A stretch of DNA of 49,172 bases from Candidatus Micrarchaeota archaeon (GCA_021810455.1 JAJZIU010000003.1:1-49172), one strand, 5' to 3'; shown: positions 680 through 25,325, numbered from the stretch's first letter. The notes: generated from the sequence alone by a model not told the origin. A program made the numbers and translations.

Positions 680-2743
680 TCACGTTCTGACCTTGTTTGG
701 AGTCGGATTTGATCTGCGAAGCACACTTGCTATATTGACTCCGGAAGTGCTTATCTCTTTTATCTTATCTTCGCAGAATTGCGAGAAGCGAGATAGCATG
801 TTGCCATAAATTCCGCCGTTGGTGATTTTATCGCTTAGTCCTCTCCTCATCATCTGCATATCAACATATCTGGATTTTTTGGACAGTTCCTGCAATGAAG
901 ATATAACACGCTCATCGTAAGAATTCTCACGTATCATCCTTCCAACATCTATTGCTTGCACAAAGTTGAGTTTGGGATCTGAAGAGTTAAGTAGAAGTTT
1001 CATGTCAAGCCGATCTATCCTCCCTCTTTCGAAATCTGCTATGTGTACCATAGAGAGAACCATGTTGTCTATTATTGCGTTTTGCTTGTCTGGTACGAGT
1101 CCGAAATCACGCATAATTACATCAAGACCAACTTCCCTGCCCAGCAAGTATGTAGCATATGCTTTTGATGCTTCGTTTAGTTCGCGACTGCGGATTACAT
1201 ACTTTAGCATAGGAAAATAACTCTCGCTTATTTTGTCTTTCATAAGGAGTTCCCCGAATAGTGGCTTTCTCACATCGCTATCGTGAAATGCATGCTTTGA
1301 GAGATTACCAGCTATTTCAGGATCATTGAGTTTGCCAAACCTACTAAGTTCCACAACTATTTCTTTTTTTATTACCGCAGGCTGGTTCTGTAATTCTTTT
1401 TTAAGAACCTCGAGTATGCGTTCCTTGGATCCATGGACCATTTCGAGTTGATATGCTCTCAGTTTCAGTTCGTTAGATTTTGAATCGAAAGTATCGTGAA
1501 GCGTTTTTATTATATCGGCCATACCTTCTGAAGATTTAGTATAAGTCATAGATTTTACTAAAGCTATAAGAACGGTTTCGTCAGACTCTTTGAGTAGGGC
1601 TTTTTGAGCCATTTGAGGAGTTATTACACCATGCTCACCTAGCTGCATGAACGCTTGCATGCGTACCGCAGGTATTGAGTCGTTGTATGCTGAGAACTGT
1701 ATGATCGGTTTGTATCTTTCAAAATTTATTTTTGACATGGCATATATGGATAGTTCTCTCATTCCAGGATCGTCATTTGATTTGAAGGCGCGAAGAAGAA
1801 CGTCATTCTCATCTATCCTTGCCGATATAGAAAACCACATAGCAGCATATGCGAGAGACTTGTTTCCATTCTTTTTCATGCCTTCATCGAAAAGATATCG
1901 AATATCCTTCTGCAGATCAGCTTCACTTATCATACCAGCGTGCAGTAGTATGTTATCCCTAACTTCTATCATTAGCGGATCGCTTGTCTTGAATTTCAAG
2001 GCTCTTTCTCCAAGTTCATTGAAGCCGTCCTTTCCAAGCATCATTAGAAGTGTGGATATTTCAAATGCACCAGTGTATCTTGCAAGGAAATATAGGTGAT
2101 CGCTCTCCGGCCAGAATTTTTGGCCTTCTTTTGTAACATGTATTGGTTGCAATCCGTGTTTAAGTAGATAGAAGCTTGTAAAAAGTCTGTCCAATCTTCC
2201 GTTTCCATCTTCGAAAGGATGCAGATCTACAAGTCTTAGGAAAAATTCTGTTGAACTTGCAAATGCATCAATAGGGGAATCATGTTTTAGGTTTAGTAAG
2301 GATATTATCTCATTAAGGTCTTTTTCTACAGTGCTTACTGGAGTGACTATGTGTGGTCCGTTGCTAAGTCTGTATCTTCTCAATCCTTCTTTGTACTTAC
2401 CGTTCCCATATATGCCATCAAGTAATCTTTTTCTTACCGCAAGCACATCGGATGTTGTTACCTCCTTATCATTCAAATCAACAAGCATGTCCAGTACATT
2501 GGATGAGTTAAGTATGGCTATGTAATCAGGTATTTTGCCGTCTTTTTCGCGTATCGCACCGCTCAAAAACAAATCTATGGGACTGATGGATTTCGCATCC
2601 GCATCTGTTTCAGAATAGAATATTGCTTTAATTATACTGTGTGACAATTCCGATCTGAAATCGCCTTTTACGGATATCAGATCAGATATCCCAAGTCTCT
2701 CGAGCATCTCCTTGTAATGGGCTTCCATAAAAACATTCCACAC
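680..2743 (-). CDS. Fic-domain protein (putative AMPylase) with C-terminal HEAT-like helical repeats
   Basis: Canonical Fic motif HPFEDGNGRLDR; repeats such as SNDDPGMRELSIYAM, NDSIPAVRMQAFMQLG, DSKSNELKLRAY. Start uncertain (GTG 2743 or ATG 2728). Confidence 0.85.
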   Translation of the reverse strand: MWNVFMEAHYKEMLERLGISDLISVKGDFRSELSHSIIKAIFYSETDADAKSISPIDLFLSGAIREKDGKIPDYIAILNSSNVLDMLVDLNDKEVTTSDVLAVRKRLLDGIYGNGKYKEGLRRYRLSNGPHIVTPVSTVEKDLNEIISLLNLKHDSPIDAFASSTEFFLRLVDLHPFEDGNGRLDRLFTSFYLLKHGLQPIHVTKEGQKFWPESDHLYFLARYTGAFEISTLLMMLGKDGFNELGERALKFKTSDPLMIEVRDNILLHAGMISEADLQKDIRYLFDEGMKKNGNKSLAYAAMWFSISARIDENDVLLRAFKSNDDPGMRELSIYAMSKINFERYKPIIQFSAYNDSIPAVRMQAFMQLGEHGVITPQMAQKALLKESDETVLIALVKSMTYTKSSEGMADIIKTLHDTFDSKSNELKLRAYQLEMVHGSKERILEVLKKELQNQPAVIKKEIVVELSRFGKLNDPEIAGNLSKHAFHDSDVRKPLFGELLMKDKISESYFPMLKYVIRSRELNEASKAYATYLLGREVGLDVIMRDFGLVPDKQNAIIDNMVLSMVHIADFERGRIDRLDMKLLLNSSDPKLNFVQAIDVGRMIRENSYDERVISSLQELSKKSRYVDMQMMRRGLSDKITNGGIYGNMLSRFSQFCEDKIKEISTSGVNIASVLRRSNPTPNKVRT

Positions 2744-3060: not shown

Positions 3061-4215
3061 TCATCTCCATCGAGTCTTTGGAAGCAGCACATCCTTGTAA
3101 TTTTCTAGCCTGTTTTTGTTTGGAAGTAGATCCTTTATGATTTCACCTATTGCATCTTTCATTTGTACTTTTAGCTTGAATCCTAATGAAGGCAGCACGG
3201 TCCTTTCAGGATTGTAATGATGCTGTTCCTCTTCAACTCTTGGATTTTCAACATTTTTTATTTTTGCATCTATACCTAGTTTTGCTGCTTCAGTTTTTAC
3301 TATCTCGGCGATCTCATTCACACTTAGCAATTCCATGAATTGGTTTACAGATCGGTATTCTCCAGTCTTTGGTTTGTTCTCTATGAGAAGGGTCAATGCA
3401 TCCATGCTATCTTGCAATGAGAGGAATCCGCGAATTTGACCCCCTTTACCGTATGGCGTTAGTGGTTCTCCCAGAATGGCCTCGACACAATACCTATTGA
3501 CAACAGTCCCCCACACCGCATCGAAATCAAATCTCGTGAATAGATCTTCACTTTTTATCTCGCTCGTCCTAGTACCATATACAGGCCCTTGCATTATGTC
3601 GGTCATTGTTATCCCCCATAATTTATTTGCGAATAATAGATTGTTAGTATCGTGAACTTTTGTCCAGTGATACCAGGAACCGCCCCATTTTGGAGTGGTT
3701 ATCTTGTCTCTTTTGCCTTTTATTTCCACGTCAACAAACGGTGCTTCGGGTATATCGAATTTTGGAGTTCCGAATTCCCCCATAGTGCCCATTTTCACAA
3801 CGTGAGTATCTAAATCAGCACCCCTTATAGCATAAATGAGGTTGATTGTTCCGTTGATATTATTTCTCATAGTGTAGGTAGCATGATTTACATCAATCAT
3901 CGAGTATGGTGCAGATCTTTGCTCAGCAAAGTGTACTATCGTTTCAGGTGTGTGCTCTTTTATAGTATCACATATGAGTTTGTAATCAGTTATGTCACCC
4001 TTTACAAATGTTATTTTGCCTTTGAATTCTTTATTTGCAATTTTGACACGTTCATCCATGGACTTAATCGGGAGGGCCGATATAGACCCAACCTCTTCCA
4101 CAGATTTCCTTGTTGCCATGTTGTCGATTCCTATAACTTCGTATCCTTTAGATGCCATTCTCAGTGCCAGTGGCCATCCCAAATATCCGTCTATTCCCAA
4201 TATCATTACTTTCAA
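3061..4215 (-). CDS. agl3: UDP-sulfoquinovose synthase (Agl3/SqdB)
   Basis: GIDGYLG Rossmann motif, HFAEQRSAPYSM, KMGTMGEFGTP, YHWTK, DIMQGPVYG, NPRVEEEQHHYNP; TTG start 4 nt after GGTGA. Confidence 0.93.
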   Translation of the reverse strand: MKVMILGIDGYLGWPLALRMASKGYEVIGIDNMATRKSVEEVGSISALPIKSMDERVKIANKEFKGKITFVKGDITDYKLICDTIKEHTPETIVHFAEQRSAPYSMIDVNHATYTMRNNINGTINLIYAIRGADLDTHVVKMGTMGEFGTPKFDIPEAPFVDVEIKGKRDKITTPKWGGSWYHWTKVHDTNNLLFANKLWGITMTDIMQGPVYGTRTSEIKSEDLFTRFDFDAVWGTVVNRYCVEAILGEPLTPYGKGGQIRGFLSLQDSMDALTLLIENKPKTGEYRSVNQFMELLSVNEIAEIVKTEAAKLGIDAKIKNVENPRVEEEQHHYNPERTVLPSLGFKLKVQMKDAIGEIIKDLLPNKNRLENYKDVLLPKTRWR

Positions 4216-4236
4216 TTACTCACCAGTAAACACGAT

Positions 4237-5613
4237 TCAACCTAAATTTTCCTCAACCAGCCCCTTAAGCTTATCGGATATGGATTTGGCTTCAGAATTA
4301 TCCTTTGCTTCAGTAGTTATCCGTATTACAGGTTCTGTTCCACTTTTGCGCACTATGAACCAGTATCCATTTCCAACAAACTTCAGACCATCTTCGTCTA
4401 TATCATCAACTGTGCCATTTCCGGAATATTTTTCTTTGATTTTTTCTATAATAGATTTCATGTTTGTACTTCTTGATGCGGATACTTTCAATTTTTGGGT
4501 GTGATACATAGGCAAAGTTGAGAATAACGTAGATGAATCCTCATCGTGGTTAGAGAGCATTTCCACCATTATGGCAAATGCCATTCCACCGTCACGAACA
4601 GGTTGATGCTCGGGATACATAAATCCCCCACTGTCCTCTATGCCGGCTATCCCGCCATCATTTATCAAAGCCCGTGATATGAACATAGGTCCTATTTTTG
4701 TCCAGATGGTTTTTACATTGAATTCGTTGAGATATTCTTCTATTAGAGGGGAACTGGCTATAGGAGCAAACACCCTCCTTGGAAGCTTCTTTTCTTTTGA
4801 TGCTAGCCAACCAGCAAGAAGAGCGCCGCTTCTATCTCCAAACTGGACTTTTCCCTTAGAATCTATGAATATAGCTCTATCAGCATCTCCATCATGAGCT
4901 ACAGTTATGTCTACCCCTAATCTGACAGATATTTCAGCGGTTTTTATTAGTGTTTCTGGAGTTGGTTCCGGTTTTCTTGAAGACATAAGAGGATCCAACT
5001 TCGTATTTATTTCGTAAATTTGGCATCCCAATTCTTTTGCTATAGCGACAGTTGTTATAGAGCCAACACTGTTTGCCCCATCTATCAAAACTTTCAATCT
5101 GCGTTTTGATATCTGTGCTTTGTTAACGTGTTTAACAACACCAGAAACATAGTCTTTTATTGAATTCTCATAAGTGTGTATATCTGTTGTAAGCTTTTTC
5201 CAATTGACAGGATTCATATCGTTTTTGAAGTATATCGATTCTATTTTGTCTTCTTCTGAAGAATCTATTTCTATGCCATCTTTACCGATGACCTTTATCC
5301 CATTGAATTCGGGAGGGTTATGACTAGCTGTTATCATTACACCAGCATCAAATCCTGCAGCTTTAACATTGAATTGTAATGCGGGAGTAGGAAGCACGCC
5401 AGCGTATGTGACTATTTCTCCAGAAGCCATTAACCCACTTTCCACAGCCCTTATGATCATATCTCCACCAGCACGCACATCCCTGCCTATTAATATTTTC
5501 TTCCCTTCACCGAAGTATGTCCCTATGGATTTGCCCATTCGCATAGCTAACTCAGGTGTGAGTTCTTCGTTGGTTACACCGCGTATTCCATTCGTGCCAA
5601 ACAGTTTTCCCAT
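4237..5613 (-). CDS. Phosphohexomutase (phosphoglucomutase/phosphomannomutase/GlmM family)
   Basis: LFGTNGIRG, TASHNP phosphoserine loop, DGDADR metal loop, RKSGTEP. Confidence 0.93.
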   Translation of the reverse strand: MGKLFGTNGIRGVTNEELTPELAMRMGKSIGTYFGEGKKILIGRDVRAGGDMIIRAVESGLMASGEIVTYAGVLPTPALQFNVKAAGFDAGVMITASHNPPEFNGIKVIGKDGIEIDSSEEDKIESIYFKNDMNPVNWKKLTTDIHTYENSIKDYVSGVVKHVNKAQISKRRLKVLIDGANSVGSITTVAIAKELGCQIYEINTKLDPLMSSRKPEPTPETLIKTAEISVRLGVDITVAHDGDADRAIFIDSKGKVQFGDRSGALLAGWLASKEKKLPRRVFAPIASSPLIEEYLNEFNVKTIWTKIGPMFISRALINDGGIAGIEDSGGFMYPEHQPVRDGGMAFAIMVEMLSNHDEDSSTLFSTLPMYHTQKLKVSASRSTNMKSIIEKIKEKYSGNGTVDDIDEDGLKFVGNGYWFIVRKSGTEPVIRITTEAKDNSEAKSISDKLKGLVEENLG

Positions 5614-5616
5614 GAT

Positions 5617-7044
5617 TCAACCTTCTTTATTATTTATCCCATAGAAGCTTAATATCATTTCGAATATGTCAACAACCTTGAGATATTTTGAATGTTTAAA
5701 GCTGTTCGGATAAAGACCGAAAATTCCTTCTCTAGTATGGTCACCGTTTCTTGCAGGTTCTGGAACAGAGAATAGTTCCGATCCAGAATAATTGAATATA
5801 TCTATAGTGTGACCATCACTTATTTTGAAAATAATATCCGGGGTTATGTTGTCTTTTGACTTTTTTGCATCGTAGAGTTCTGTGACAAGTTTTTTCCCTT
5901 CGTCATCCTTCATAGCTAGCATTTTTTTGATGATTTCTTTCTTCAACTTGTTTCGTTCTTTTTCTGTTACGCGTTGTGAAATAAATCTTGAGTCATTTAT
6001 CCATATGCTACCGAACGGATTGTTTGTTAATGATGCAAATGCTTTTGTCGATTTCATATCTAATGTTTTTGTGTCCTTTGTTTCTTCAATATCATTTTCC
6101 ACTACGCTCGCGCATATGAATTTCATCACGGTTGTCTTAGAAGATACATTAATCTGTTCTAACTTGTTTCTTGAAGCCTTGTTATTTTCAAGATTTGACG
6201 TTTCATAAGGGTTGGGTTTCTCACTTGTTCGTTTTATAGAAGCGTAATTGTTGTTTATCAGCCATGCATTAAGCATGAATTTGCTACGTATTCCCTGCGC
6301 ACCATGATCGGAAACTAGCATTATTACATCTTCCGGATTCTTCCATGAAATCAGCCACTCGATGAATTGCGATATGTGACGATATAGAGGTTCGACAAAA
6401 TCCTCCCAGTTTCGCATATTGAGTGTATAATGTTGTATTCTGTCAATCTCAGTGAAGCAGATAAATGAGAATCCGTATTTACCAGAGGTAATAAGGTTTT
6501 TCGTCATTTCTGACCTGTTTTTAATGCTTTCAGAGTATATTTTTGTTGCCTCAGATAGTTTAAGCGTACCTTGCCTTAAACCTTCTTCTATCTCTGGCTC
6601 TCCATAGAAACCAGATTTTTTTGCTGCGTTTTTAAGTTTGTTGGAAGAATAGCGCGGTTTTAGTGGAAAACCCGTAATGATATCGACGTTTGATGAACCT
6701 GTTTGAACAACTGTTGCAGGGGTTACTATAAGGCACTTCACACCGTTTCGAGCAAGGATTTCCCAGAATGGAGGATGTCTTTTTGTGTCATAGTATATGA
6801 GTTCTTTAGTGTAATCCTTATTTAATTTAAAAAAATTAGTTACTCCGTGAATACTGGGATCTAATCCAGTGTATATGCTTGGCCATGCTACAGGAGTAAG
6901 AGGAGGTATGGTAGATTCCAAGTTTTCCAGTGTTCCGGAATCAATAAATTTTAGAAATCCTTTGAGTTTGTATTTAGAAGATAATTTTTTTATTATCCAT
7001 TTTGGTGCAGAATCTATACCTATTACGAACAGTCTCTTGTTCAT
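5617..7044 (-). CDS. Alkaline-phosphatase superfamily protein (type I phosphodiesterase/nucleotide pyrophosphatase-like)
   Basis: VIGIDSA, STIPPLTPVAWPSIYTG (Thr nucleophile), DRIQH, VSDHG, GDHTREG. Confidence 0.85.
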   Translation of the reverse strand: MNKRLFVIGIDSAPKWIIKKLSSKYKLKGFLKFIDSGTLENLESTIPPLTPVAWPSIYTGLDPSIHGVTNFFKLNKDYTKELIYYDTKRHPPFWEILARNGVKCLIVTPATVVQTGSSNVDIITGFPLKPRYSSNKLKNAAKKSGFYGEPEIEEGLRQGTLKLSEATKIYSESIKNRSEMTKNLITSGKYGFSFICFTEIDRIQHYTLNMRNWEDFVEPLYRHISQFIEWLISWKNPEDVIMLVSDHGAQGIRSKFMLNAWLINNNYASIKRTSEKPNPYETSNLENNKASRNKLEQINVSSKTTVMKFICASVVENDIEETKDTKTLDMKSTKAFASLTNNPFGSIWINDSRFISQRVTEKERNKLKKEIIKKMLAMKDDEGKKLVTELYDAKKSKDNITPDIIFKISDGHTIDIFNYSGSELFSVPEPARNGDHTREGIFGLYPNSFKHSKYLKVVDIFEMILSFYGINNKEG

Positions 7045-8228
7045 TTTATAACACCTATACCCAAAAATCCTTTTGAGTCGTACATGGTGAACCGGGATAG
7101 TTCGGGTATGCTTCTTTCTATTACGACAACGTCCTGAACCCTGACTGTTGCGAATGATACTGAAAGAGATTTGAGCACTTTCGAATCTTTAAGTCCCCCG
7201 TATTTATCAATCAAGGCCTTGGGAGCTATTAGGGATTTTGAAATGGTGCCATTGATGTTGATTGAAATATCGCCTCTTTGATTTCTAATAGGAAATACCA
7301 ACGAATCAAAGGCTTTGACAGTGTGCAGATTGGAATTTTTTGTTGATGCAACATTTCCGCGTGTCACTCCGATAGGAGGATTTACACGTATGGCTACGTT
7401 TATACCTTTGCGTGCAATTTTTGAAGATTTATTTTTAACAAAAATGTTTTCTATTTTGCAGTTTTTCATATAAGGCAGTATTAGTAACTTGTCATTTATG
7501 TGGATACTTCCAGACAATATTTTGCCCAGTATAGTATTATTATCAAGGTTGCCTTGAAGAATTATAGATAGTTTTTTGCTTTGTGAAACTTTGCTTTTCG
7601 GAGCGTTGAGTATAGTTGTGATGAGGCATTCGCCCTCGTACCATGGAATTTTGCCAGATCTCGATATGAGATTTTCCATCTTGTATGCAGATATTGGAAC
7701 AAATGTGCACCATGTCCACCCTATCCTATCAAGATAAGTTTTGAACTCGTTTTTTATTTTATTGAATGTTTTTTCATCGTAAGATATTAGATCCATCTTG
7801 TTTACTGCAACTATCAGATTTTTTATGTCTAGCATTTTTGCTATCAGTACATGCCTCTTTGTCTGTTCGGTTATGCCTTCGTTTCTTAATGCAGAAATGA
7901 TGATCAGGGCAGTGTCCCCGTAAGATGCACCAGTTATCATATTGCCAATAAGTTCTTCATGACCTGGAACGTCTATAAATTCTATGAAATTCCCATTAAA
8001 AACCAAGGATGCCCTAGAGGTATCTATTGTCAGTCCGCCTTCGTGTTCTTCCTCAAAACTGTCTATTATGAATCCAGGCTCAAAGATTTTCCCAAGTTTA
8101 GAACTGATGGACTTGGCTTTTTCCAAACGTTCACTACTTACGGATTTTGTAACTATTAGCATACTACCTATGAGTGTCGATTTGCCATGATCCTTATGGC
8201 CCAATAATGTAACCCTGTTTGAAATCAT
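7041..8228 (-). CDS. cysN: Sulfate adenylyltransferase subunit 1 (EF-Tu-like GTPase)
   Basis: GHKDHGKST, GLTID, DVPGH, NKMD, PISA; immediately downstream of cysD. Confidence 0.8.
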   Translation of the reverse strand: MISNRVTLLGHKDHGKSTLIGSMLIVTKSVSSERLEKAKSISSKLGKIFEPGFIIDSFEEEHEGGLTIDTSRASLVFNGNFIEFIDVPGHEELIGNMITGASYGDTALIIISALRNEGITEQTKRHVLIAKMLDIKNLIVAVNKMDLISYDEKTFNKIKNEFKTYLDRIGWTWCTFVPISAYKMENLISRSGKIPWYEGECLITTILNAPKSKVSQSKKLSIILQGNLDNNTILGKILSGSIHINDKLLILPYMKNCKIENIFVKNKSSKIARKGINVAIRVNPPIGVTRGNVASTKNSNLHTVKAFDSLVFPIRNQRGDISININGTISKSLIAPKALIDKYGGLKDSKVLKSLSVSFATVRVQDVVVIERSIPELSRFTMYDSKGFLGIGVIK

Positions 8229-8235
8229 CTACCCA

Positions 8236-9024
8236 CTACATGTAACCTAGTGCTCTTAGTTTGGACATGACATAATCTTTCTCTTTATCTTGATCTCTCC
8301 CTTGCCTTTCTTCGGTTGTTGAGACTTTCAATTCTGCCATTATTTGTGGTATGTTTTTTGCATTAGATTTTATCATAGATGTGCAATGTGTGCAACCAAG
8401 GCTCCTATACCTGAACCCATTTCTTGAGAAGTACAGCGGATTAACAGGTATTTTTTCGGCTTGGGTATAGTTCCAGACATCTATCTCGTTCCAATCTAAA
8501 AGAGGGTGTATCCGGGCATGCTCACCCTCTTCTATTTTTGAAGAATAATCATCCCACAATTCAGCCTTTTGATTTTTGTAATCCCACTTGAAATCCTTGT
8601 TGCGTTTTGATACGTATCTTTCTTTAGAGCGTATACCATGTTCATCTCTTCTTATCGATACTATTAATGCATTGAAACCTTGTTCTTTCATTATCTTTTT
8701 TAGGGCTTCAGTTTTGTTTGAACCGCAACAACTAAATCCGGAAAGTTCCTTTTTTATTTTGCTTTCTGCAACTATGAGATCTAATTTCCATTTTTTTGTT
8801 AACAGATCCCTGAATTCGTAAGTTTCTGGAAAGTCTATCCCATTATCTATGTGTATAACGGGGAAAGGTATTTTGCTAACAAATGCTTTTCTTGCTACTG
8901 CAAGCATAGCAGTAGAATCTTTGCCCATGCTCCATAGAGCAGCAACATTGTCAAAGCGAGAGACGGCTTCCCTAAGCAAGAATATGCTTCTCTCTTCCAG
9001 TAGGCTGAGGTTTTGTTTTATCAT
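8236..9024 (-). CDS. cysD: Sulfate adenylyltransferase subunit 2
   Basis: WSMGKDS PP-loop, IRRDEHGIRSKER, RIHPLLDW, RYRSLGC, ERQGRDQD, C-terminal LGYM. Confidence 0.9.
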   Translation of the reverse strand: MIKQNLSLLEERSIFLLREAVSRFDNVAALWSMGKDSTAMLAVARKAFVSKIPFPVIHIDNGIDFPETYEFRDLLTKKWKLDLIVAESKIKKELSGFSCCGSNKTEALKKIMKEQGFNALIVSIRRDEHGIRSKERYVSKRNKDFKWDYKNQKAELWDDYSSKIEEGEHARIHPLLDWNEIDVWNYTQAEKIPVNPLYFSRNGFRYRSLGCTHCTSMIKSNAKNIPQIMAELKVSTTEERQGRDQDKEKDYVMSKLRALGYM

Positions 9025-9305
9025 TTAGACACCAGATTAACACTCCGAAGATCTTTGAGATATATGAGAGCTCCGCGAATATCGTTCTTTTTGATTACGG
9101 ATAACGGTACTCGAGTTATAGGTTTGTTTTTTATATCGTACAATTCGACGTAAGAGCGTTTTAGATCATCTGATTTGTTTAAACCTTTGTAAAAGACACG
9201 ATAATATTTTACATTGCTTTTTTTGAGCTCTTCTGAGAATGATTCCCAATCATCTATTTTGTTAGACTTTTGAAGTTTGAGTGCCGCTTTTTCTATGTCT
9301 GCCAT
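9021..9305 (-). CDS. Hypothetical protein within the cysDN operon
   Basis: 94-aa ORF, ATGA overlap with cysD, 8 bp from the upstream gene. Confidence 0.7.
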   Translation of the reverse strand: MADIEKAALKLQKSNKIDDWESFSEELKKSNVKYYRVFYKGLNKSDDLKRSYVELYDIKNKPITRVPLSVIKKNDIRGALIYLKDLRSVNLVSK

Positions 9306-9313
9306 AAAATCAA

Positions 9314-9526
9314 CTAGGTATATCCAAGCGCCTTTAGGCGTTCTATCACCGAGTTTTTTTCGTTTGAATCAGATTCCATTGTTGCCATCGTTTCCCTCAG
9401 TATATAAGTTACACAATCTGAAACTGAAGAAAAACCCGTGTTCTTTATCTTGTCTTCAATTCTCTCAAAAAGTGGCGTTGGTATGGTTATAGTAGTGTAC
9501 TTTCGTTTAGTTCCATTCTTTTTCAT
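9314..9526 (-). CDS. CopG/ribbon-helix-helix regulator with C-terminal RLKALGY tail
   Basis: YTTITIPTPLFERIEDKIKNTGFSSVSDCVTYILRE ribbon-helix-helix pattern; first gene of the operon. Confidence 0.85.
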   Translation of the reverse strand: MKKNGTKRKYTTITIPTPLFERIEDKIKNTGFSSVSDCVTYILRETMATMESDSNEKNSVIERLKALGYT

Positions 9527-9671
9527 ACAATCCCAATGTTGTTTAATGTTACAACATTATAATACAAGATTATAAAAACCTTTCAGAAGCTGACTCAGAT
9601 AACTATGCAGGCATAATGAGGTTATAGAAACATTTTTAAACGATAGGTTTTTATGAAGAATAGGGATTGGT

Positions 9672-9870
9672 ATGAACGGTTTTGAATCAAACATAGAGAC
9701 GGATACTGTTGCAAATGGAGATTTTAGAAGGGTTTTGTATACGGGAAAGCATAGCCAACTTGTTCTTATGAGCCTAAAACCCGGGGAGGAGATAGGAGAG
9801 AGTATAGGGTTTGATGCTGTTGATGCTGGGAAGTTAAAGTCTGCAAGATATCTTGAGGCTCTGGGAATGC
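9672..9870 (+). pseudogene. Fusion remnant: cupin N-terminus joined to the C-terminal part of an F420/NADP-oxidoreductase-like gene, interrupted by the IS
   Basis: FRRVLYTGKHSQLVLMSLKPGEEIGE (cupin start; the metal-binding His region is missing), then SIGFDAVDAGKLKSARYLEALGM. Confidence 0.7.
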
Positions 9871-10050
9871 GTGACATCCCCCCCACCCGTAAACGGCGTG
9901 GGCTTCCTCTGCGTTCATGCAATCACTGCATCGTGCAGAGGATGTGTTTTATCGGTTCTCAGTTCTTCGAGAGTTGCCTCCTGTTGAGGTCTTACATTCT
10001 CTCCCCGAGCGTGACTTTCCCTCTGTCCGAGGGTAGCTCTTTTGGGTATG
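9871..10050 (-). ncRNA. Predicted TnpB reRNA (omega RNA) scaffold; guide read from the flank below 9871
   Basis: Established TnpB architecture plus the right-end hairpin; the 5' boundary is approximate. Confidence 0.6.
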
Positions 10051-11126
10051 TTTATTGATGCGTTTATGTCCCTGTCCAACTGCAATCCGCATTTATCGCA
10101 GTTGTATTCTCTGACGGAGAGTGGCATTTCCCGTATGTTGCCACAATTACTGCACTCCTTTGATGTATTCCTTGCGTCTACTTTCATTACCTTCATACCA
10201 GCACTTTCAGCCTTGTATGAGAGGTATTGGACGAACCTGTTCCATGAAGCGTTCTGTATCGAACCTGCCAATCTGTGATTCTTTACCATGTTTTGTATAC
10301 GCAGGTCTTCCACTGCAAATGAAGTATATCCTGAATTGACGAGAGTATCTGAAAGTTTGTGAAGATAATCATCTGATTGGTTTGTTATGTGTTCGTATGT
10401 CTTCTGGAGATCTGCCTTCGCCTTCTCCCTTCTCTTTGAGCCTTTGTTCCTCCTTGCGACTACCCTTTGCCAATGCGAAATCCTTTTTCTGTTCTGTTGC
10501 ATGAACTTTGGCTTCTCTATCTTTGTTCCGTCTGAAATTGCAATGAATGAATCCAGTCCTAGATCTATCCCGACTGGATTGGTGTTCTCCACTTCGGGAA
10601 TTCTGATGTTATTTATCGTGGTGAAGATTGCGTAATAGTTCTTTCCTTCCCGCTTTATTGCGAGCGTCTTTATTGTGCCTTCTATCTTCCTATGCAAATC
10701 TATCGGCATTGTTCCTATTCTTGAAATTCTTAGCCTGCCCTTTCTTATCGAGAAGGAACCATTGTCCTGTGGATAGGTTATTGACTTGTATCTGTCTTTT
10801 GACTTGAATCTTGGGAAGCCTGCCTTCCTGTTTCCTTCCTTGATTCTCCTGAAGAAATTTTGGTATGCCTTCATAAGCCTGAATTCTATCTCGCATCTTG
10901 TTTGCGAATACAGTTTCAGGTATTTCTTGTCTTCTTGAATTATTTCTTTTACAAATCTGTTGAATTGCGCCATTGATACTTTGTGATTGTCATTCTTATA
11001 TGATCGAATCGATTTCTCAAGAAGTCTATTGTAGAACCGCTGCGCAAGAATTAGGCGTTTATCTATTTCTTCCTGCCGTATGGTATCAGGATAGATTCGG
11101 AATTTATATGCCTTCGTCAATTCCAT
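9915..11126 (-). CDS. tnpB: RNA-guided endonuclease TnpB
   Basis: KAYKFRIYP, GFPRFK, RuvC residues GIDLG / AVEDL / DRDINA, zinc finger CSNCG...CDKCG. Confidence 0.96.
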   Translation of the reverse strand: MELTKAYKFRIYPDTIRQEEIDKRLILAQRFYNRLLEKSIRSYKNDNHKVSMAQFNRFVKEIIQEDKKYLKLYSQTRCEIEFRLMKAYQNFFRRIKEGNRKAGFPRFKSKDRYKSITYPQDNGSFSIRKGRLRISRIGTMPIDLHRKIEGTIKTLAIKREGKNYYAIFTTINNIRIPEVENTNPVGIDLGLDSFIAISDGTKIEKPKFMQQNRKRISHWQRVVARRNKGSKRREKAKADLQKTYEHITNQSDDYLHKLSDTLVNSGYTSFAVEDLRIQNMVKNHRLAGSIQNASWNRFVQYLSYKAESAGMKVMKVDARNTSKECSNCGNIREMPLSVREYNCDKCGLQLDRDINASINIPKRATLGQRESHARGENVRPQQEATLEELRTDKTHPLHDAVIA

Positions 11127-13444: not shown

Positions 13445-14104
13445 ATGGATAAGCCTGTAGAGATAATTATTGATGATAGAGAACGCAACGAAGAGATAGT
13501 CAATGGTCTTGAACAACATAATGTGAGTGTGAGATTCGCACAATTACCAGTAGGAGATTATATCATATCTGATAGGATTTGTGTTGAGAGGAAAACTGTC
13601 TCAGATTTCTCAAATTCGGTAATGGATCTTAGATTATTTGATCAGATAGAAAGACTTAGTAGAAGCTTTCAGAAGCCGATTTTGATAATAGAAGGAGACG
13701 AAGAAATTTCCATAACAAAAAATGCAATGATAGGTGCAATGCTAAAGGTGTGCATAGATTCGAATGTACAGATACTTAGATCTGAATCAGGAGAAGAAAC
13801 GGCATACATGTTATCAAGATTAGCCGAAAGAGAACAGATAGTTGATGATAGGGAACCGAGAATATTAGGGTTCAAAAAAGCTTATACAAATAGACAGTGG
13901 CAATTGCTAATCCTTAGTTCGATACCGGGAGTAGGACCAAAACTCGCAAAGGATCTTTTAGCAAAGTTCAAAACAATTAGGAATGTGGTCGATGCGAATA
14001 TCGAAGATCTAATCTCTGTAGATAAAATAGGAAAGATTAAAGCAAGTAGGATACACAAGATACTTAATATGGAAAGCGGGGATGAGGTAGATGGATCTTA
14101 TTAA
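13445..14104 (+). CDS. XPF/ERCC4 structure-specific endonuclease (nuclease + HhH2, no helicase)
   Basis: IIIDDRE, LPVGDY, VERKT, IPGVGPK and VDKIGK HhH motifs. Confidence 0.9.
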   Translation: MDKPVEIIIDDRERNEEIVNGLEQHNVSVRFAQLPVGDYIISDRICVERKTVSDFSNSVMDLRLFDQIERLSRSFQKPILIIEGDEEISITKNAMIGAMLKVCIDSNVQILRSESGEETAYMLSRLAEREQIVDDREPRILGFKKAYTNRQWQLLILSSIPGVGPKLAKDLLAKFKTIRNVVDANIEDLISVDKIGKIKASRIHKILNMESGDEVDGSY

Positions 14105-14723
14105 AAAGTTGTTTGAGAGTGGCGAACAAAACATACTGATTAAGTGCAGAAATCTTGTCAGCATATCCATAAAGGCAAACACAATGCTCAGGGAAGTAAT
14201 AGATGGAGCACAGGTTTTGGGAGAAGTGAAAAAACTTGAAAGTGAAGCGAGCAAAAAATCGTTCATGCTTTCGAATTTGATAACTTCTGGTGCAATAGCT
14301 CCAAATATCATAGACAATATGATATCATTGGTAAATACTGAGGATGAAATAGTAGACTCAGTATTCAATCTTTCTAGACAGCTTTTGAGATACAAAATCG
14401 CTGATAATAAAAATGGAAATTTCCTAAGAGAGAATCTAATAAACATGAATGAACTGGCTTCCAATGCGCTTGGACAGCTATATGACATGCATACGACAGA
14501 TGACATAGGTAACATAGGAAAGATACGGACGAAGATAAAAACTCTTGAGAATAAGGGAGATGTGATAAAGGATAACGTTCTGGATTTTGTTTATAAATCA
14601 GACATGGACTTTAGAAGTTTTTATCACATTATGAATTCCACATATTTGGCAGATGATATATTAGATAATTGTGAAGATGCATCTGACATTTTCATGAGCA
14701 TAATGCTTTCACTAACAACATGA
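14091..14723 (+). CDS. DUF47/PhoU-like phosphate transport accessory protein
   Basis: All-helical; LENKGD and DDILDNCEDASD motifs; upstream of the PiT gene. Confidence 0.8.
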   Translation: MDLIKKLFESGEQNILIKCRNLVSISIKANTMLREVIDGAQVLGEVKKLESEASKKSFMLSNLITSGAIAPNIIDNMISLVNTEDEIVDSVFNLSRQLLRYKIADNKNGNFLRENLINMNELASNALGQLYDMHTTDDIGNIGKIRTKIKTLENKGDVIKDNVLDFVYKSDMDFRSFYHIMNSTYLADDILDNCEDASDIFMSIMLSLTT

Positions 14724-14834
14724 CCATAATTTAGAGGTATTGCTATCAACAAAGACACGCCATACATAAAAACAATGTTGATACACATCACATAAGTATT
14801 TTCTCTTCTTTTACCTGAATATGGTAGAATCATA

Positions 14835-15761
14835 ATGCTTCCCTTTGCGCTGATAAATCTGATAATGTCATTCGTACTTATAGCCTTAGTTTCGGGAAAC
14901 AATCTGCCAGTATGCTCTGGTTCCATAATAGCTGCAAAAATAGTTAACAGAAAAACAGGCATACTTCTGACCGTATTTGGTTATGTCATAGGTCTGGCAT
15001 TGCAGGGAAGTTTGCTAAGATACGGACTTAACGCCATACTTCCCGTAAATGAAACAGCCCTTCCTTCCGTAGCACTTTTCATAGCAATGATTATATTCTT
15101 GATAGCTCACAAGTGGAGAGTTCCGCAATCATTATCAATCACTTTTAGTATGGCGATTTTGGGGATAAGCATGGCATACACAGAGAGCATAAATTGGACT
15201 TTTGTGGGATTTATGCTGGGTTTATGGATATTTGCAACAGGAGCAGCATTGGTAACTACATTCGTTTCTATGAAAATGCTTCCCTTACTCATGTATAAAA
15301 GGAGAGTATGGAGAGTTGTTGGCGCAATAAAACCAATGCTCATAGTAACCTCTTTTTTAGCAGCATTTACATTAGGGGCAAACACCATAGGATTTGTATC
15401 AACTGCTGTGAATGGAGGCGTATATACGATTCCAGTATTCATATTGGCCATAATTGTTGGTAGTGTGTTTCTTAGCAGAGGGGAATTGAAACGCATAGGA
15501 CACGAAATACTACCTTTAAGATACGCAAACGCCCTTGTATCACAGTTTGTTTCGGTGATTTTGGTAGAACTTGCCACGTTGTTCGGCGTGCCTTTATCAA
15601 ACACACAGACATTTACTATGGGATTGTATGGGGTTGGACTTGGTTATAAAACGAGACTGATAAGAACCAGACCAGCAATGACAATATTTCTTACATGGAC
15701 GGTAACTGCAATAGTTAGTTTGATATTAGGTTATGTAATGACAAAGACACTTATTCTGTAG
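14835..15761 (+). CDS. Inorganic phosphate transporter, PiT family
   Basis: SGNN and GANT signature repeats, PQSLS and PLSNTQ, multiple TM segments. Confidence 0.82.
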   Translation: MLPFALINLIMSFVLIALVSGNNLPVCSGSIIAAKIVNRKTGILLTVFGYVIGLALQGSLLRYGLNAILPVNETALPSVALFIAMIIFLIAHKWRVPQSLSITFSMAILGISMAYTESINWTFVGFMLGLWIFATGAALVTTFVSMKMLPLLMYKRRVWRVVGAIKPMLIVTSFLAAFTLGANTIGFVSTAVNGGVYTIPVFILAIIVGSVFLSRGELKRIGHEILPLRYANALVSQFVSVILVELATLFGVPLSNTQTFTMGLYGVGLGYKTRLIRTRPAMTIFLTWTVTAIVSLILGYVMTKTLIL

Positions 15762-16179
15762 GCAGACCGGCATAAGACACAGAACTTGCTTCGTTGTAAT
15801 CCAAAGACAAAGTGCATTTTTTACCGAGTCTGATCTTAGTCTTTTTCACGAACTCAGTAAGAACCCTAGTACTTGATGCAACAATCATAAATTTGTATCC
15901 CGATGCACCACAAACCCTAATAGCCGTTTCTATGCGCATTGTTTTAGCTATGAATAGAAGCATTTCCATTCTGAGAGTTTTAGCCCGAGCTATGCCATCA
16001 TTTTGTCTGACAATGGAATTAAGATATGCAGGAAGTACCCTGTTTAATATTGATTTGTCATTTTTCAGTAGTAATATGAACTCGTTATCACTAGTTTGTG
16101 CGGATTCACGAAGCAGGTCATTAACAGGTACATGCGAAGATGCGAAATAGACTACAGGCTTTTTAACGTGATTTTCCAT
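15751..16179 (-). CDS. cgi121: KEOPS subunit Cgi121-like protein
   Basis: ARAKTLRMEMLLFIAKTMRIETAIRVCG resembles the Cgi121 E(I/M)LL...RQI..A motif. Confidence 0.65.
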   Translation of the reverse strand: MENHVKKPVVYFASSHVPVNDLLRESAQTSDNEFILLLKNDKSILNRVLPAYLNSIVRQNDGIARAKTLRMEMLLFIAKTMRIETAIRVCGASGYKFMIVASSTRVLTEFVKKTKIRLGKKCTLSLDYNEASSVSYAGLPTE

Positions 16180-19927: not shown

Positions 19928-20974
19928 TCACTCTCCGGATTTTACTTTTTTAATATCTTCTTTTTTTATTGCAAGTTTTACAGCGCCGGTACCTATTGGT
20001 ATCTGTTTTCCTACGAGTATGTTTTCAGTGACTCCCTTCATAGGATCAACCTCGCTGAACAGCGCAGCGTTTACAAGATGTTTGACTGTTTCTTCATATG
20101 CAGCTCTTGCAAAAACAGAATTTTTCTGCCCGCTGAGTCCGTGTCTGCCGACTCCCTTTATAGTGCCACTGTAGGTCATCGCATCGGCAACTAGCAAGAG
20201 ATGCCTATCATCCACAGATATTTTCTGTTCTTCTAATGTTTTTCTGAGTTCATTTGCAAGTGTGTTCCTCGCAGCTTCTATTCCAAACAGCTTGTACATA
20301 GCAAAAACATCGTTGGTGTATGTTCTTGATTTGTCAACACCGTCCAACTTCATTACTTCACTTATGTTGCTTCCTGCAGTTATTACATAAAAGCTTCCAT
20401 CCTTGCTTTGTTGTATAAGCGCTTTTCCGGCATCCTCAATGCCCTGTATCACTTTTTTCATTATGCGTACTCCAGTTACTCTTATTTCTTTAAGGCTCTT
20501 GGTGTGCAGTTTTATGAGTATATTACCTTCATTGACTTCTGTTTCGACAGACATCAACTTTGCTATTTTTTGCGCTACTTGGTTGGGAGTCAATTCTTCA
20601 GCTGCAAGTGCCTGCTTATCAAGAACAAGTTTTACTGTGGATTTCGAAAAATTCTCTACAACTCTCTTCACAAGACTGCTGACTTTTATTTCGCTTATTT
20701 TCTTTGACATAGCATCAGACTTTTCGAAGTTCTTCTCTATGTCACTGTTGAAGTACACGTAAGTTATAGGAGTTGCTGGCTTCTTTTTAACATCTACAAG
20801 TTCGACTATTCTTGGAAGTCCTGATGTAGCTATTGTTGCCTCTATCCCAGCATAGTGGAACGTTCTGAGAATCATCTGAGTTCCTGGTTCACCGACAGAT
20901 TGTGCTGCAAGCATACCTACAGGTTCACCATAATTTACTTTATACTTATTTGCATTTTTTTCCATAGCCATCAC
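19928..20974 (-). CDS. rpoA2: RNA polymerase subunit A'' (Rpo1C)
   Basis: AAQSVGEPGTQMILRTFH trigger loop, GLPR, GIEAAR, GVTENI. Confidence 0.97.
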   Translation of the reverse strand: MMAMEKNANKYKVNYGEPVGMLAAQSVGEPGTQMILRTFHYAGIEATIATSGLPRIVELVDVKKKPATPITYVYFNSDIEKNFEKSDAMSKKISEIKVSSLVKRVVENFSKSTVKLVLDKQALAAEELTPNQVAQKIAKLMSVETEVNEGNILIKLHTKSLKEIRVTGVRIMKKVIQGIEDAGKALIQQSKDGSFYVITAGSNISEVMKLDGVDKSRTYTNDVFAMYKLFGIEAARNTLANELRKTLEEQKISVDDRHLLLVADAMTYSGTIKGVGRHGLSGQKNSVFARAAYEETVKHLVNAALFSEVDPMKGVTENILVGKQIPIGTGAVKLAIKKEDIKKVKSGE

Positions 20975-23490
20975 TTTTCTAACTCAACAAACTTTACGTT
21001 GACGGGATTGATTGCGTCACCACCGTAGACAGTCTGTATGATGTTGTTGTTGACATCTCTTACACTGTCATCCTCAGTTACGTAATAATCCTGCAGTGCG
21101 TTTGACAGTCTTCTGTACAGGTAGCCGCTCCTTCCAGTTAGGAGTGCCTTGTAAACTTCAGAACCTCTTGAACCTACAGCATGCATGAACAGATCTGCAG
21201 GTGAAAGTCCCATGTAGTAGTTTGTTATGATGAATCCTCTTGCACTGGGTCCGATATCGCGTTGTTTTATGTGAGGAAGAAGCCTTCCCGTATAGTAACC
21301 TCTTTTTATTCTTCCTCCGCTAAGAGTTGCCTGTTGCCCAAGGAACATGCTCATCTGTTCAAGATTGAGCACGCTTCCTCTGGATCCCGATCTAGCCATC
21401 TCTACTGCACTGTTCGTGCTATCCTCGTTTGATGCCAGAGTTTCACCAGCCTTGCTTCTCGCCATGTTGAGTTCTGCTATTATCATGCGTTCGAGAGACT
21501 CTCTTAACGTTTGTCCAATGAGTGCCTCTAACTTACCTTCCTTGTAGCTTTTTATCAGTTCGTTTACTTTAACCAAGGTTGCGTTAAGTATTTTCATCCT
21601 TTCGTCTTCCATGTGCTTGTTTATCGAGTACTCTTTGACTCCGACAGTTACTCCTGAAAGAGTAACGTATGCATCCGCTAGCTTGGATGAAACGAAGATG
21701 AATTTCCTAAGTTCTTCGTAACCATAGTTTTTGGCTATTTCGACGGATAATTCATTATCCCTTCCGTAAGTGTCCTTTGTGATGACACCTTCGAGGAGCT
21801 TTCCGTTCTTTATCTTGAATGGACCGTACACAGTGTCTTCCTCGTAATTGAGATCCTTGGGCAGAAGCATTGAGAATATATCCTTACCATTGTACTTGCC
21901 ATCCTTTCCAGGCTTTGGCATTTCATATATTCCTGCTATTCCGAGAAGATACGCGGTCTCATCATACTCAAGTTTTGTTTCATCTTTGGTTAATTGGAAT
22001 AAACCACTGATTCCGTCTTCGCTGTTTGTTATCACGGCTGCTCCGTCTCTTGGAGAGAATATTTGATACTGCACTTCCATGAGATACCTGGCTTCTGCTT
22101 GTGCTTCGAGGGTTTGAGGAACGTGAAGGTTCATTTCGTCTCCGTCGAAGTCTGCATTGTATGGAGTTGTAGTACAGTAATTTATCCTGAATGTCTTGCC
22201 AGGCAAAACGCGTATCCTATGCGCCATTATTGATATGCGGTGCAGTGACGGTTGTCTGTTGAACAGAGCTATGTCACCATCTATTACCTGTCTTTCCAAT
22301 ATCGAACCTACAGTCAATTCCTTGAGTATATCTTCTCTGTTTGCGTCTATGACACGTTTTCTTTTACCATCCTTTGAAATCATATTTACAACAGATGGAT
22401 ATTCGTTCCTTTTCAACAACTCCTTGGCATGCTCGATATTCCACGCGGTTACATAGAATGGTACAGTAAGCTTTGATGCTATTTCTATAGGAACACCAAC
22501 CTCGTCTATATCAAGATATGGATCTACGCTGATTACCGTTCTTGCAGAGTAATTAACTCTTTTTCCACTGAGGTTGTATCTAAATCTCCCTTCTTTTCCT
22601 TTCAATCTTTGTGCTATTGTTTTAAGTGCCCTGCCACTTCTGTGCCTTGCAGGGGGTATTCCTGATGTTTCATTGTTGAAGTATGCAGTGACATGATATT
22701 GGAGAAGTTCCCACAGATCGTCTATTATGATCTGCGGTGCGCCTGCGTTTATGTTCTGTTCAAGCCTTTGGCCTATCCTCATTATATCAACAAGCTTGTG
22801 TGTCAGATCGTCTTCGCTTCTTTCTCCTGATTCCAGAGTTATCGATGGCCTTACATTTACAGGAGGGACAAGAAGTGAACTTATTATCAGCCATTCTGGT
22901 CTGCTAACTTTTGGATCTATATTTAACAATCTAAGGTCATCATCACTTACCTTTGCAAGAAGATCACGGATTTCATCAGGTTTTAATCTCTTGTCTCCTA
23001 CGGTAAAGTATGTTGGTGCAGAGAAGTGTATTTTTGGTTGTTGTGAACCGCAGTGAGGACACTTGTTTCCAGACCTCTTTGCCATCTTGCCAGGCACGGT
23101 GTGATGATTTTCGCCATTTGCCTCAGATTCTTCGGATACAACCTTTTTCATCTCGTCTATCTGTTTGTCATCTAGAAGTATCCTATGGCATGTCATGCAT
23201 GTTGCATTTAACAGCATTCTAAGCACTTTTGCGAATTCAGAATGTATTACGGGTCTGACCAACTCTATGTGTCCGAAATGTCCAGGACATGTCTTTGCTC
23301 TTCCTCCGCAAGTCTTGCATACCAAACCAGGATCTATTACTCCGAGTCTTTGATCCAGTAAACCGCCATCTATCGGATAGCCGTCCTCGTTATACGTATC
23401 TGGAACCGTCAGTTTTGCAACGCTCATGTGCTTTATCTCTTCAGGAGAGACTATTCCGAATTTTATATGATCTATTACTTCTGCATGCAT
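20971..23490 (-). CDS. rpoA1: RNA polymerase subunit A' (Rpo1N)
   Basis: CPGHFGHIEL, NRQPSLH, YNADFDGDEMN. Confidence 0.98.
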   Translation of the reverse strand: MHAEVIDHIKFGIVSPEEIKHMSVAKLTVPDTYNEDGYPIDGGLLDQRLGVIDPGLVCKTCGGRAKTCPGHFGHIELVRPVIHSEFAKVLRMLLNATCMTCHRILLDDKQIDEMKKVVSEESEANGENHHTVPGKMAKRSGNKCPHCGSQQPKIHFSAPTYFTVGDKRLKPDEIRDLLAKVSDDDLRLLNIDPKVSRPEWLIISSLLVPPVNVRPSITLESGERSEDDLTHKLVDIMRIGQRLEQNINAGAPQIIIDDLWELLQYHVTAYFNNETSGIPPARHRSGRALKTIAQRLKGKEGRFRYNLSGKRVNYSARTVISVDPYLDIDEVGVPIEIASKLTVPFYVTAWNIEHAKELLKRNEYPSVVNMISKDGKRKRVIDANREDILKELTVGSILERQVIDGDIALFNRQPSLHRISIMAHRIRVLPGKTFRINYCTTTPYNADFDGDEMNLHVPQTLEAQAEARYLMEVQYQIFSPRDGAAVITNSEDGISGLFQLTKDETKLEYDETAYLLGIAGIYEMPKPGKDGKYNGKDIFSMLLPKDLNYEEDTVYGPFKIKNGKLLEGVITKDTYGRDNELSVEIAKNYGYEELRKFIFVSSKLADAYVTLSGVTVGVKEYSINKHMEDERMKILNATLVKVNELIKSYKEGKLEALIGQTLRESLERMIIAELNMARSKAGETLASNEDSTNSAVEMARSGSRGSVLNLEQMSMFLGQQATLSGGRIKRGYYTGRLLPHIKQRDIGPSARGFIITNYYMGLSPADLFMHAVGSRGSEVYKALLTGRSGYLYRRLSNALQDYYVTEDDSVRDVNNNIIQTVYGGDAINPVNVKFVELEK

Positions 23491-23494
23491 AATA

Positions 23495-25315: not shown

Positions 25316-25325
25316 TAGATCAACC

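Follow-up and report, generated by a model that had tools for sequence, protein, structure and literature searches.

What becomes of activated sulfate when the operon that would produce it encodes neither an adenosine 5'-phosphosulfate (APS) kinase nor an APS reductase? This question is raised by a 49,172-nucleotide stretch of DNA from a Candidatus Micrarchaeota archaeon, referred to below as the window, in which seven minus-strand open reading frames (ORFs) are arranged in series from position 9526 to position 3061. In the direction of transcription, these ORFs encode a putative ribbon-helix-helix (RHH) protein, a 94-residue protein (h94), a CysD-type ATP sulfurylase subunit, a GTPase of the EF-1alpha/CysN family, an NPP/PhnA-type enzyme of the alkaline-phosphatase superfamily (hereafter NPP), a phosphohexomutase and an Agl3/SQD1-type UDP-sulfoquinovose synthase. 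The operon points to an undescribed route for placing sulfur on surface sugars. In the interpretation favored here, which is held at slightly less than even confidence, the seven genes form one regulator-controlled operon that supplies sulfur to a surface glycoconjugate, and NPP would act as the direct user of APS. The product is best read as a sulfated and/or sulfoquinovose glycoconjugate. Sulfation of archaeal glycans and glycolipids is an unsolved problem, and for Haloferax the only known connection is a genetic one, to Agl7 (PMC3892788). The module described here, a conserved four-gene cassette and one NPP-type enzyme, constitutes a small and testable gene set.

A conserved four-gene cassette at the head of the operon

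The ORF coordinates bear out the proposal of a first-pass annotation of this DNA that seven co-oriented genes are separated by overlaps or by gaps of at most 21 bp: along the operon, from RHH to agl3, the spacing is 8, −4, 7, −4, 3 and 21 nt. Family scans also uphold the gene identities that were assigned, with two reservations, namely that the GTPase scores under the CysN cut-offs and that the RHH call is weak. An Rfam search of the operon region returned no match. As a set of seven, the genes are not conserved. A protein search with NPP yielded 186 relatives at E ≤ 1e-3 among 4,456 candidates, and scanning one genome per species gave 158 relatives; the locus counts reported below refer to the best 80 loci, which were compared with the window proteins by tblastn, Agl3 and the phosphohexomutase being counted at ≥300 bits. 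CysD and/or the GTPase are found in 38 of these 80 loci, both are found in 36, and RHH, h94, CysD and the GTPase occur together in 30. Order and strand are constant (RHH–h94 in 30/30 pairs, h94–CysD in 31/31 and CysD–GTPase in 36/36), and the corresponding median gaps are 0, 1 and 8 nt. Agl3 is present in only 8/80 loci, six of which have the cassette, one a GTPase fragment at a contig end, and one of which is a 4.6-kb contig; phosphohexomutase homologs are nearby in 2/80. The conserved unit is the four-gene cassette RHH–h94–CysD–GTPase.

The GTPase stop codon lies 15–34 nt ahead of the NPP start codon in 14 loci. Convergent arrangements of cassette and NPP account for 22 loci, where the two are mostly ~1.1 kb apart, a space that corresponds to one GT4 glycosyltransferase gene. 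A clustering of all 1,369 ORFs from the loci identifies GT4 as the commonest neighbor (53/80 loci), followed by HhH-GPD, Memo and threonyl-tRNA synthetase (ThrRS) genes, which mark a common synteny block. Genes for DegT aminotransferases, STT3 and flippase-like proteins also recur nearby, and the NDP-sugar epimerase/dehydratase, nucleotidyltransferase and GHMP-kinase genes that, with GT4, surround the module in relatives are in agreement with the glycan setting suggested earlier for the operon. A quick tree of the 80 NPP proteins places the window copy in a seven-member clade (SH-aLRT 99) that includes four loci with the cassette, Agl3 and GT4 and two loci whose flanks show none of these. No description of the cassette was met in searches of the Micrarchaeota literature, and cassette-related search terms are absent from the main text of Chen et al. 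2018.

Two further features of the related loci were recorded. Homing-endonuclease-like ORFs are inserted between cysD and the GTPase gene in locus L012 (LAGLIDADG, 14961–15785) and in locus L004 (NUMOD3 motif, 7437–7790). Second GTPase matches near some cassettes correspond to aIF2-gamma and are unrelated.

CysD carries the iron-sulfur motifs of APS reductases

The third gene (8236–9024, minus strand) encodes a 262-residue short form of CysD with a PF01507 domain. This protein exceeds the cut-off of NF003587 (293.7 bits, cut-off 195) and falls under those of the narrower models TIGR02039 (228.7, cut-off 396.6) and NF009214 (222.2, cut-off 413). It matches Pseudomonas syringae CysD (PDB ID: 1ZUN, chain A) at 183.5 bits and shares 37% identity with Escherichia coli CysD over the whole length, with a gap of ~29 residues. 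The PP-loop SMGKDS (residues 32–37) is nearly invariant among the homologs, and a C-terminal ..GY(F/M) is shared between the tail of the window protein (..KLRALGYM) and that of the E. coli protein (..QGYF).

CysD holds exactly four cysteines, a CC pair at residues 99–100 and a CxxC pair at residues 211–214 within the sequence SLGCTHCT. According to a published study (PMC3125206), APS reductases are characterized by the motifs CCXXRKXXPL and SXGCXXCT, which hold the iron-sulfur cluster of these enzymes. The second motif is supported by a HMMER alignment of the CysD stretch YRSLGCTHCT with YPSIGCAPCT of Mycobacterium tuberculosis APS reductase (PDB ID: 7LHR), whereas in yeast 3'-phosphoadenosine 5'-phosphosulfate (PAPS) reductase no cysteine is present where the CxxC pair aligns. 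For the CC pair, the match to the reductases is one of spacing to the conserved lysine of the published motif rather than of alignment: the pair precedes this lysine by four residues (CCGSNKTEAL in the window), and a PDB search with this stretch returned only CysD and PAPS-reductase rows that end short of the pair. Among Micrarchaeota-type CysD homologs, the CC pair is present in 157/157 and the exact S.GC..CT motif in 154/157, both cysteines being retained in the other three. The four-cysteine form accounts for 47 of the best 150 representatives of clusters formed at 50% identity, mostly short proteins ending in ..LGYM, and two of the 150 carry three of the four cysteines. The rows that end in ..EGYF and contain the ~29-residue insert are without the CC pair and retain no more than one of the two CxxC cysteines. 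When CysH-like proteins are used to root a quick tree, the canonical CysD clade (support 100) is nested among the four-cysteine forms, the backbone of this tree being weak. These proteins make up a CysD class with APS-reductase iron-sulfur motifs that is widespread in metagenomes, and no description of an iron-sulfur CysD was met in a literature search, judged by the titles and abstract openings of the papers listed. From its motifs, CysD probably holds a [4Fe-4S]-type cluster beside the sulfate site. Four-cysteine CysD-like domains also form the C-terminal part of metagenome proteins of 430–737 residues (P0368, P0369, P0370, P0372, P0379, P0387, P0404 and P0421).

The invariance of the CC and S.GC..CT motifs raises the alternative that the four-cysteine CysD complex itself makes APS and then releases sulfite to Agl3 by means of the iron-sulfur site and an outside thiol. 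Such an activity would fit with the co-location of the cassette with Agl3 and with the thioredoxin gene found beside NPP in one related locus (L077). This alternative is nevertheless considered very unlikely. The catalytic C-terminal cysteine is missing (E. coli CysH ends in ..ECGLHEG and CysD in ..LGYM), and the APS-reductase model TIGR02055 scores CysD far under its cut-off (57.8, cut-off 235.3). Furthermore, Agl3 is not nearby in 30 of the 38 cassette loci, and the abundance of the four-cysteine form among the cluster representatives indicates that it is not tied to Agl3. With no cysteine in its tail, CysD falls outside the reductase family, and it is treated below as the putative APS-forming subunit.

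The GTPase partner and h94

The gene that follows cysD (7041–8228, minus strand) encodes a 395-residue GTPase that matches PF00009 (127.4 bits) and is without an APS-kinase domain. Its motifs GHKDHGKS, DVPGHE and NKMD are intact, and 32 sequences agree without exception at residues D86–E92, N143, K144 and D146. The score against the EF-1alpha model NF008969 (213.3, cut-off 502) is about equal to the CysN score, and in the PDB the protein matches aEF1alpha (PDB ID: 3WY9) at 166 bits and CysN (PDB ID: 1ZUN, chain B) at 151 bits. Homologs are annotated inconsistently in the sources, as GTP-binding protein, EF-1alpha or CysN/CysC.

The closeness of the GTPase to EF-1alpha and CysN alike, the lack in CysD of the ~29-residue insert of the canonical form, and the presence of Agl3 near just 8/80 loci could be accommodated if the CysD-like protein and the GTPase activated another oxyanion or substrate and the adjacency of Agl3 reflected genome compaction. 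This possibility is judged highly improbable, since CysD passes a curated cut-off and resembles the E. coli protein along its whole length, the order and spacing of the pair are fixed over 36 loci, and a sulfur theme appears in two independent contexts (Agl3 in one, CysH-like and sulfatase-family genes in the other, as described below). Sulfate is retained as the presumed substrate of the pair.

The gene for h94 (9021–9305, minus strand) has a stop codon that overlaps the cysD start by 4 nt, and h94 adjoins CysD in 31 loci. Pfam and NCBIfam scans assign the protein, which the first-pass annotation had listed as hypothetical, to no family, and no Pfam family is common to more than 2 of 26 homologs. 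An AF2 model (pLDDT 86.8) consists of two helices and a small sheet; comparison with PDB folds gave nothing significant (best E 0.13, TM ~0.35), and a structure atlas gave no usable match. When a complex of h94, CysD and the GTPase was predicted, a control in which the GTPase was replaced scored nearly as high, so that the prediction speaks neither for binding nor against it. Since h94 contains no cysteine, it is not a redox carrier. A role as an EF-1beta-like exchange factor was also rejected, as its helices and strands are predicted to follow one another in a different order from those of this fold and no such structure is among the PDB matches. Found only with the CysD–GTPase pair, h94 is proposed to be an accessory protein.

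NPP and the fate of APS

NPP (475 residues; 5617–7044, minus strand) is encoded by a gene that shares its first 4 nt with the end of the GTPase gene, and it exceeds the cut-off of PF01663 (85.3 bits, cut-off 23). Residues D11, T45, D201, H205, D246, H247 and H436 are invariant in 24 homologs; by analogy, the Asp and His residues are taken to form a two-metal site and Thr45 to be the nucleophile. The AF2 model (pLDDT 83.7) contains a disordered insert of ~50 residues (274–325), and its best fold matches are phosphonoacetate hydrolase (PDB IDs: 1EI6 and 3SZY; TM 0.57–0.67), followed by ENPPs, with a Foldseek probability of 1.00 for both. The protein begins directly with the first strand and has no leader, which places it in the cytoplasm.

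A Pfam scan of 48 window ORFs revealed no sulfur-metabolism family beyond the operon genes, APS kinase and APS reductase included, as had been claimed from the sequence at the outset. No sulfotransferase is encoded in the window or among 209 neighbor proteins of related loci, which, scanned directly or as cluster representatives, also contain no APS kinase, APS reductase or sulfite reductase. The window and the 80 loci, 1.30 Mb in all, contain no tblastn match to E. coli CysC, CysI or CysJ at E ≤ 1e-3; the matches to E. coli CysH are confined to the CysD genes and to a CysH-like gene in each of loci L077 and L078. In these two loci, RHH and NPP adjoin the CysH-like PAPS_reduct protein (L077, 548–4482; L078, 6819–11944), which has the same tail as CysD (..LRELGY) and is without the cysteine motifs; the CysD–GTPase pair was not found within the sequenced stretch of either locus. 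Both loci also encode a PF00884 sulfatase-family protein with Thr at what is presumed to be the nucleophile position of the sulfatase motif C/S-x-P-x-R, and L077 alone encodes a thioredoxin. Taken with the CysD cassette, this second context ties NPP and its regulator to sulfonucleotide-type genes in two ways.

As APS formation is energetically unfavorable, something must consume the product. In ordinary sulfate assimilation, an APS reductase, or an APS kinase together with a PAPS reductase, would be encoded elsewhere and would supply sulfite to Agl3, whereas NPP and GT4 would be unlinked to sulfur. The reaction of SQD1 and Agl3 is established to require sulfite. Moreover, Agl3 near NPP comes with the cassette in six of eight loci (and with a GTPase fragment in one more), the relatives L077 and L078 have the CysH-like gene, accompanied in L077 by thioredoxin, and NPP and GT4 are found without the cassette. 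This explanation is regarded as unlikely, though as a serious contender. Its enzymes are encoded neither in the window nor in ~1.25 Mb of related neighborhoods, and NPP begins close to the end of the GTPase gene, with an overlap in the window and a distance of no more than 34 nt in 14 loci. In addition, sulfur-assimilation genes are stated to be absent from the cultivated relative ARM-1 in its published description (PMC8784108). The operonic NPP would be the best local candidate for the consumption of APS.

No pairing is more widespread in the related loci than that of NPP with GT4, and it would also suit a remodeling of lipid head groups. Here, NPP would strip head groups from host-derived lipids and GT4 would add a sugar (sulfoquinovose where Agl3 is present) to give phosphate-free anionic glycolipids, the cassette only supplying sulfur. 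The NPP fold family includes the lipid phosphodiesterases autotaxin, ENPP6 and ENPP7, sulfoquinovosyl-lipid synthases are members of GT4, and bacterial lipid remodeling uses phosphodiesterase–glycosyltransferase pairs. However, the GT4 proteins match N-glycan and glycolipid models alike only weakly (≤63 bits, far under the cut-offs), and STT3/AglB and flippase-like genes lie near NPP in some loci. Lipid remodeling is considered quite unlikely, and direct use of APS by NPP is the reading that is developed below.

Phosphohexomutase and Agl3

The last two genes of the operon encode the phosphohexomutase and Agl3. The 458-residue phosphohexomutase (4237–5613, minus strand) is of the archaeal GlmM type, exceeds the cut-off of TIGR03990 (487.1, cut-off 439) and contains all four PGM_PMM domains (PF02878, PF02879, PF02880 and PF00408). 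The 384-residue Agl3 (3061–4215, minus strand) scores 640 against NF041015 (cut-off 575) in an alignment that spans residues 1–384 of 384, and it matches Arabidopsis SQD1 (PDB ID: 1QRR) at 349 bits over residues 2–383, including the YH..K stretch.

A putative regulator with a CysD-like tail

The 70-residue RHH protein (9314–9526, minus strand) is encoded by the first gene of the cassette in every locus. Its family call derives from weak matches to the NikR N-terminus, in a family scan (E 1.2e-3) and in a profile comparison with the PDB (E ~0.2). The sequence that precedes the gene contains a putative promoter and operator (9544–9578, minus strand), in which a TATA-like run (9570–9578) is followed by the palindrome TAATGT-N4-ACATTA (9544–9559), 18 nt upstream of the RHH start codon. 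The window contains a single copy of this palindrome, where 0.01 would be expected. In 29 of the 36 sources that carry RHH, a copy lies no more than 200 nt ahead of this gene, and 1.298 Mb of sequence contains only 35 sites in total. The conservation of the palindrome at the cassette promoter fits autoregulation and a DNA-binding role of the RHH protein. Of the six other sites, two precede a histidine-phosphatase gene that adjoins the cassette, which suggests that the regulon may exceed the cassette. The encoded phosphatase (branch 1, 211 residues) lies at 13253–13924 in L045 and at 14773–15429 in L063, in each case with its own upstream palindrome.

The C-terminus of the RHH protein (..RLKALGYT) resembles that of CysD (..KLRALGYM). 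The window protein and its 35 homologs from the loci all end in ..[AS]LGY plus 0–4 residues, and every one of the RHH and CysD homologs listed ends in ..(K/R)L(K/R)ALGY plus 0–4 residues. Among the 1,369 locus ORFs, the tail pattern is present in 37/37 members of the CysD cluster (including the two CysH-like proteins), in 20/24 members of the RHH cluster and in two others; within the window it is confined to the RHH and CysD genes. Since L077 and L078 retain the tail although their sequenced stretches yielded no GTPase gene, the GTPase is a less likely binding partner for it than the PAPS_reduct domain or some protein that both contexts share. The possibility that RHH and h94 constitute a toxin–antitoxin pair was set aside, as CysD invariably accompanies the pair in the loci and RHH occurs without h94 beside NPP in L077 and L078.

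Proposed mechanism

At the level of protein families, CysD and the EF-1alpha/CysN-type GTPase would convert ATP and sulfate to APS at the expense of GTP, with an iron-sulfur cluster probably located beside the sulfate site of CysD and h94 acting as an accessory protein. NPP, which is predicted to be translationally coupled to the GTPase, may then remove APS. The most likely route for this step would be that Thr45 and the two-metal site pass the sulfuryl group to a sugar, either free or lipid-linked, and a transfer straight from APS would make an APS kinase unneeded. Judged by their families, the phosphohexomutase would provide a hexose-1-phosphate and Agl3 would form UDP-sulfoquinovose from UDP-glucose and sulfite. 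As the relatives suggest, a GT4 enzyme encoded beside the module, of which the window has no copy, would add the sugar. Control is proposed to occur through binding of the RHH protein to TAATGT-N4-ACATTA over the promoter and, as its tail copies that of CysD, any partner that docks this tail might titrate the regulator. A precedent for a role of the alkaline-phosphatase superfamily in archaeal glycan sulfation is given by Haloferax Agl7 (HVO_2046), which is encoded within a glycosylation cluster and is genetically required for the sulfation of dolichol-phosphate-bound hexose (PMC3892788).

Several observations weigh against this mechanism. The cassette is absent from 42/80 NPP loci, 19 of which are flanked on each side by 5 kb of sequence or more, so NPP and GT4 also exist without it and NPP need not depend on APS. 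Over the quick NPP tree, linkage to the cassette is scattered and requires at least eight changes. Known NPP and PhnA enzymes attack phosphorus rather than sulfur, and an attack on the phosphorus of APS would just hydrolyze it. APS yields sulfite for Agl3 only by way of a reductase, and none is encoded in the window. There is also no glycosyltransferase among the 48 window ORFs scanned. Finally, two of the assignments on which the mechanism draws are loose: the GTPase is under the cut-offs of the CysN models (TIGR02034, 200.9 against 336.1; NF003478, 199.9 against 590), and the ribbon-helix-helix assignment of the 70-residue protein is weak.

A more far-reaching form of the proposal is that DPANN archaea sulfate surface glycans or lipids without an APS kinase or a classical sulfotransferase. 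An iron-sulfur CysD, the GTPase and h94 would make APS, a Thr-nucleophile NPP would use it as sulfuryl donor, and a repressor would sense the state of the enzyme through its CysD-mimicking tail. In this complete form the proposal is rather unlikely to be correct. If it were true, the four-cysteine CysD would, as a further consequence, predate the cluster-free proteobacterial CysD and be its ancestor. Three findings stand independently of the APS question, namely the CysD class with iron-sulfur motifs, the regulator tail that copies the CysD tail, and h94 as a protein without a known fold. As these organisms have shed most of their metabolism, what remains likely matters for the host-facing cell surface.

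Host and genomic surroundings

The source of the operon is a tiny DPANN archaeon of the Micrarchaeota type with a symbiotic way of life, in line with the reduced-genome archaeon that had been proposed. Among the 120 NPP matches listed, the named ones are nearly all from Micrarchaeota, Micrarchaeaceae or Marsarchaeota. The titles of the best 80 NPP loci name Micrarchaeota, Micrarchaeia or Marsarchaeota in 79 cases and an "uncultured archaeon" in one, and relatives of CysD and of the GTPase show the same Micrarchaeota/Marsarchaeota naming. Elsewhere the window carries genes for tRNA synthetases, MCM and the like, together with those of RNA polymerase, in which subunit B and subunit A are both divided over two genes (19928–26813, minus strand), as fits the archaeal lineage. 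An 89-nt tRNA (42305–42393, plus strand) was assigned a four-base anticodon by ARAGORN, scores 57.8 bits against the Rfam tRNA model and probably contains an intron.

On the upstream side of the operon, a solo TnpB of the IS200/IS605 type (11126–9915, minus strand; NF040570, 270.9 bits, cut-off 100) is followed by a 121-codon ORF that belongs to no family (9922–9557, minus strand) and may correspond to the non-coding 3' part of the element. Together (9557–11126) they separate ThrRS from the cassette promoter; ThrRS is near the cassette in 15 related loci, mostly on the RHH side. A PhoU_div/DUF47 gene and a PHO4 (PiT-family) transporter gene lie 5 kb from the cassette (14091–15761, plus strand). 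The PiT family includes a sulfate permease, so the transporter could be a route of sulfate uptake; neither gene is conserved near the cassette, with matches to the transporter in 0/80 and to the DUF47 gene in 1/80 related loci. Downstream of agl3, at a distance of 317 nt, a 687-residue protein with a Fic domain and HEAT repeats is encoded (680–2743, minus strand), and it is matched in 0/80 related loci.

Comparison with known systems

The operon shares with the CysD–CysN system of Proteobacteria (PDB ID: 1ZUN; E. coli cysDNC) a PP-loop subunit and an adjacent EF-Tu-type GTPase, but it has no APS-kinase gene or domain, and the h94 and RHH genes are additional. Relative to proteobacterial CysD, the window protein is ~40 residues shorter, with the ~29-residue gap described above, and it has four invariant cysteines where canonical CysD has none or one. 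The GTPase also differs from proteobacterial CysN in that it scores as well against EF-1alpha. A dedicated CysDN copy among genes that sulfate a glycoconjugate is likewise known from the NodPQ–NodH system of rhizobia. In that system, however, an APS-kinase domain is part of NodQ, and NodH transfers sulfate from PAPS as a sulfotransferase; neither kind of gene is present in the window.

With the APS reductases of M. tuberculosis (PDB ID: 7LHR) and Pseudomonas aeruginosa (PDB ID: 2GOY), CysD has in common the PAPS_reduct fold family and both cysteine motifs. It is distinguished from these enzymes by the absence of the C-terminal catalytic cysteine (ECGLH) and by an intact PP-loop of the ATP type. 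Agl3, for its part, is a full-length match to the family model of the UDP-sulfoquinovose synthases, which are represented by Agl3 of Sulfolobus acidocaldarius and SQD1 of plants. A study of Sulfolobus describes sulfoquinovose as part of the N-glycan and agl3 of S. acidocaldarius as scattered apart from the other agl genes (PMC8993221), whereas in the window agl3 closes an operon with sulfate-activation genes, a linkage that is found in a minority of relatives.

The fold of PhnA and the NPPs is shared by the window enzyme, as, by analogy, are the Asp and His residues of the two-metal site and the Thr nucleophile, all of them invariant. It is only 12–13% identical to these proteins, contains the ~50-residue insert, and has sulfate-activation and glycosyltransferase genes as genomic partners. 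Finally, the window enzyme and Haloferax volcanii Agl7 both belong to the alkaline-phosphatase superfamily. Agl7 is annotated as an N-acetylgalactosamine-4-sulfatase (PMC3892788, Table S1), and the two proteins, going by this annotation, would represent the sulfatase and the NPP branches of this superfamily, respectively.

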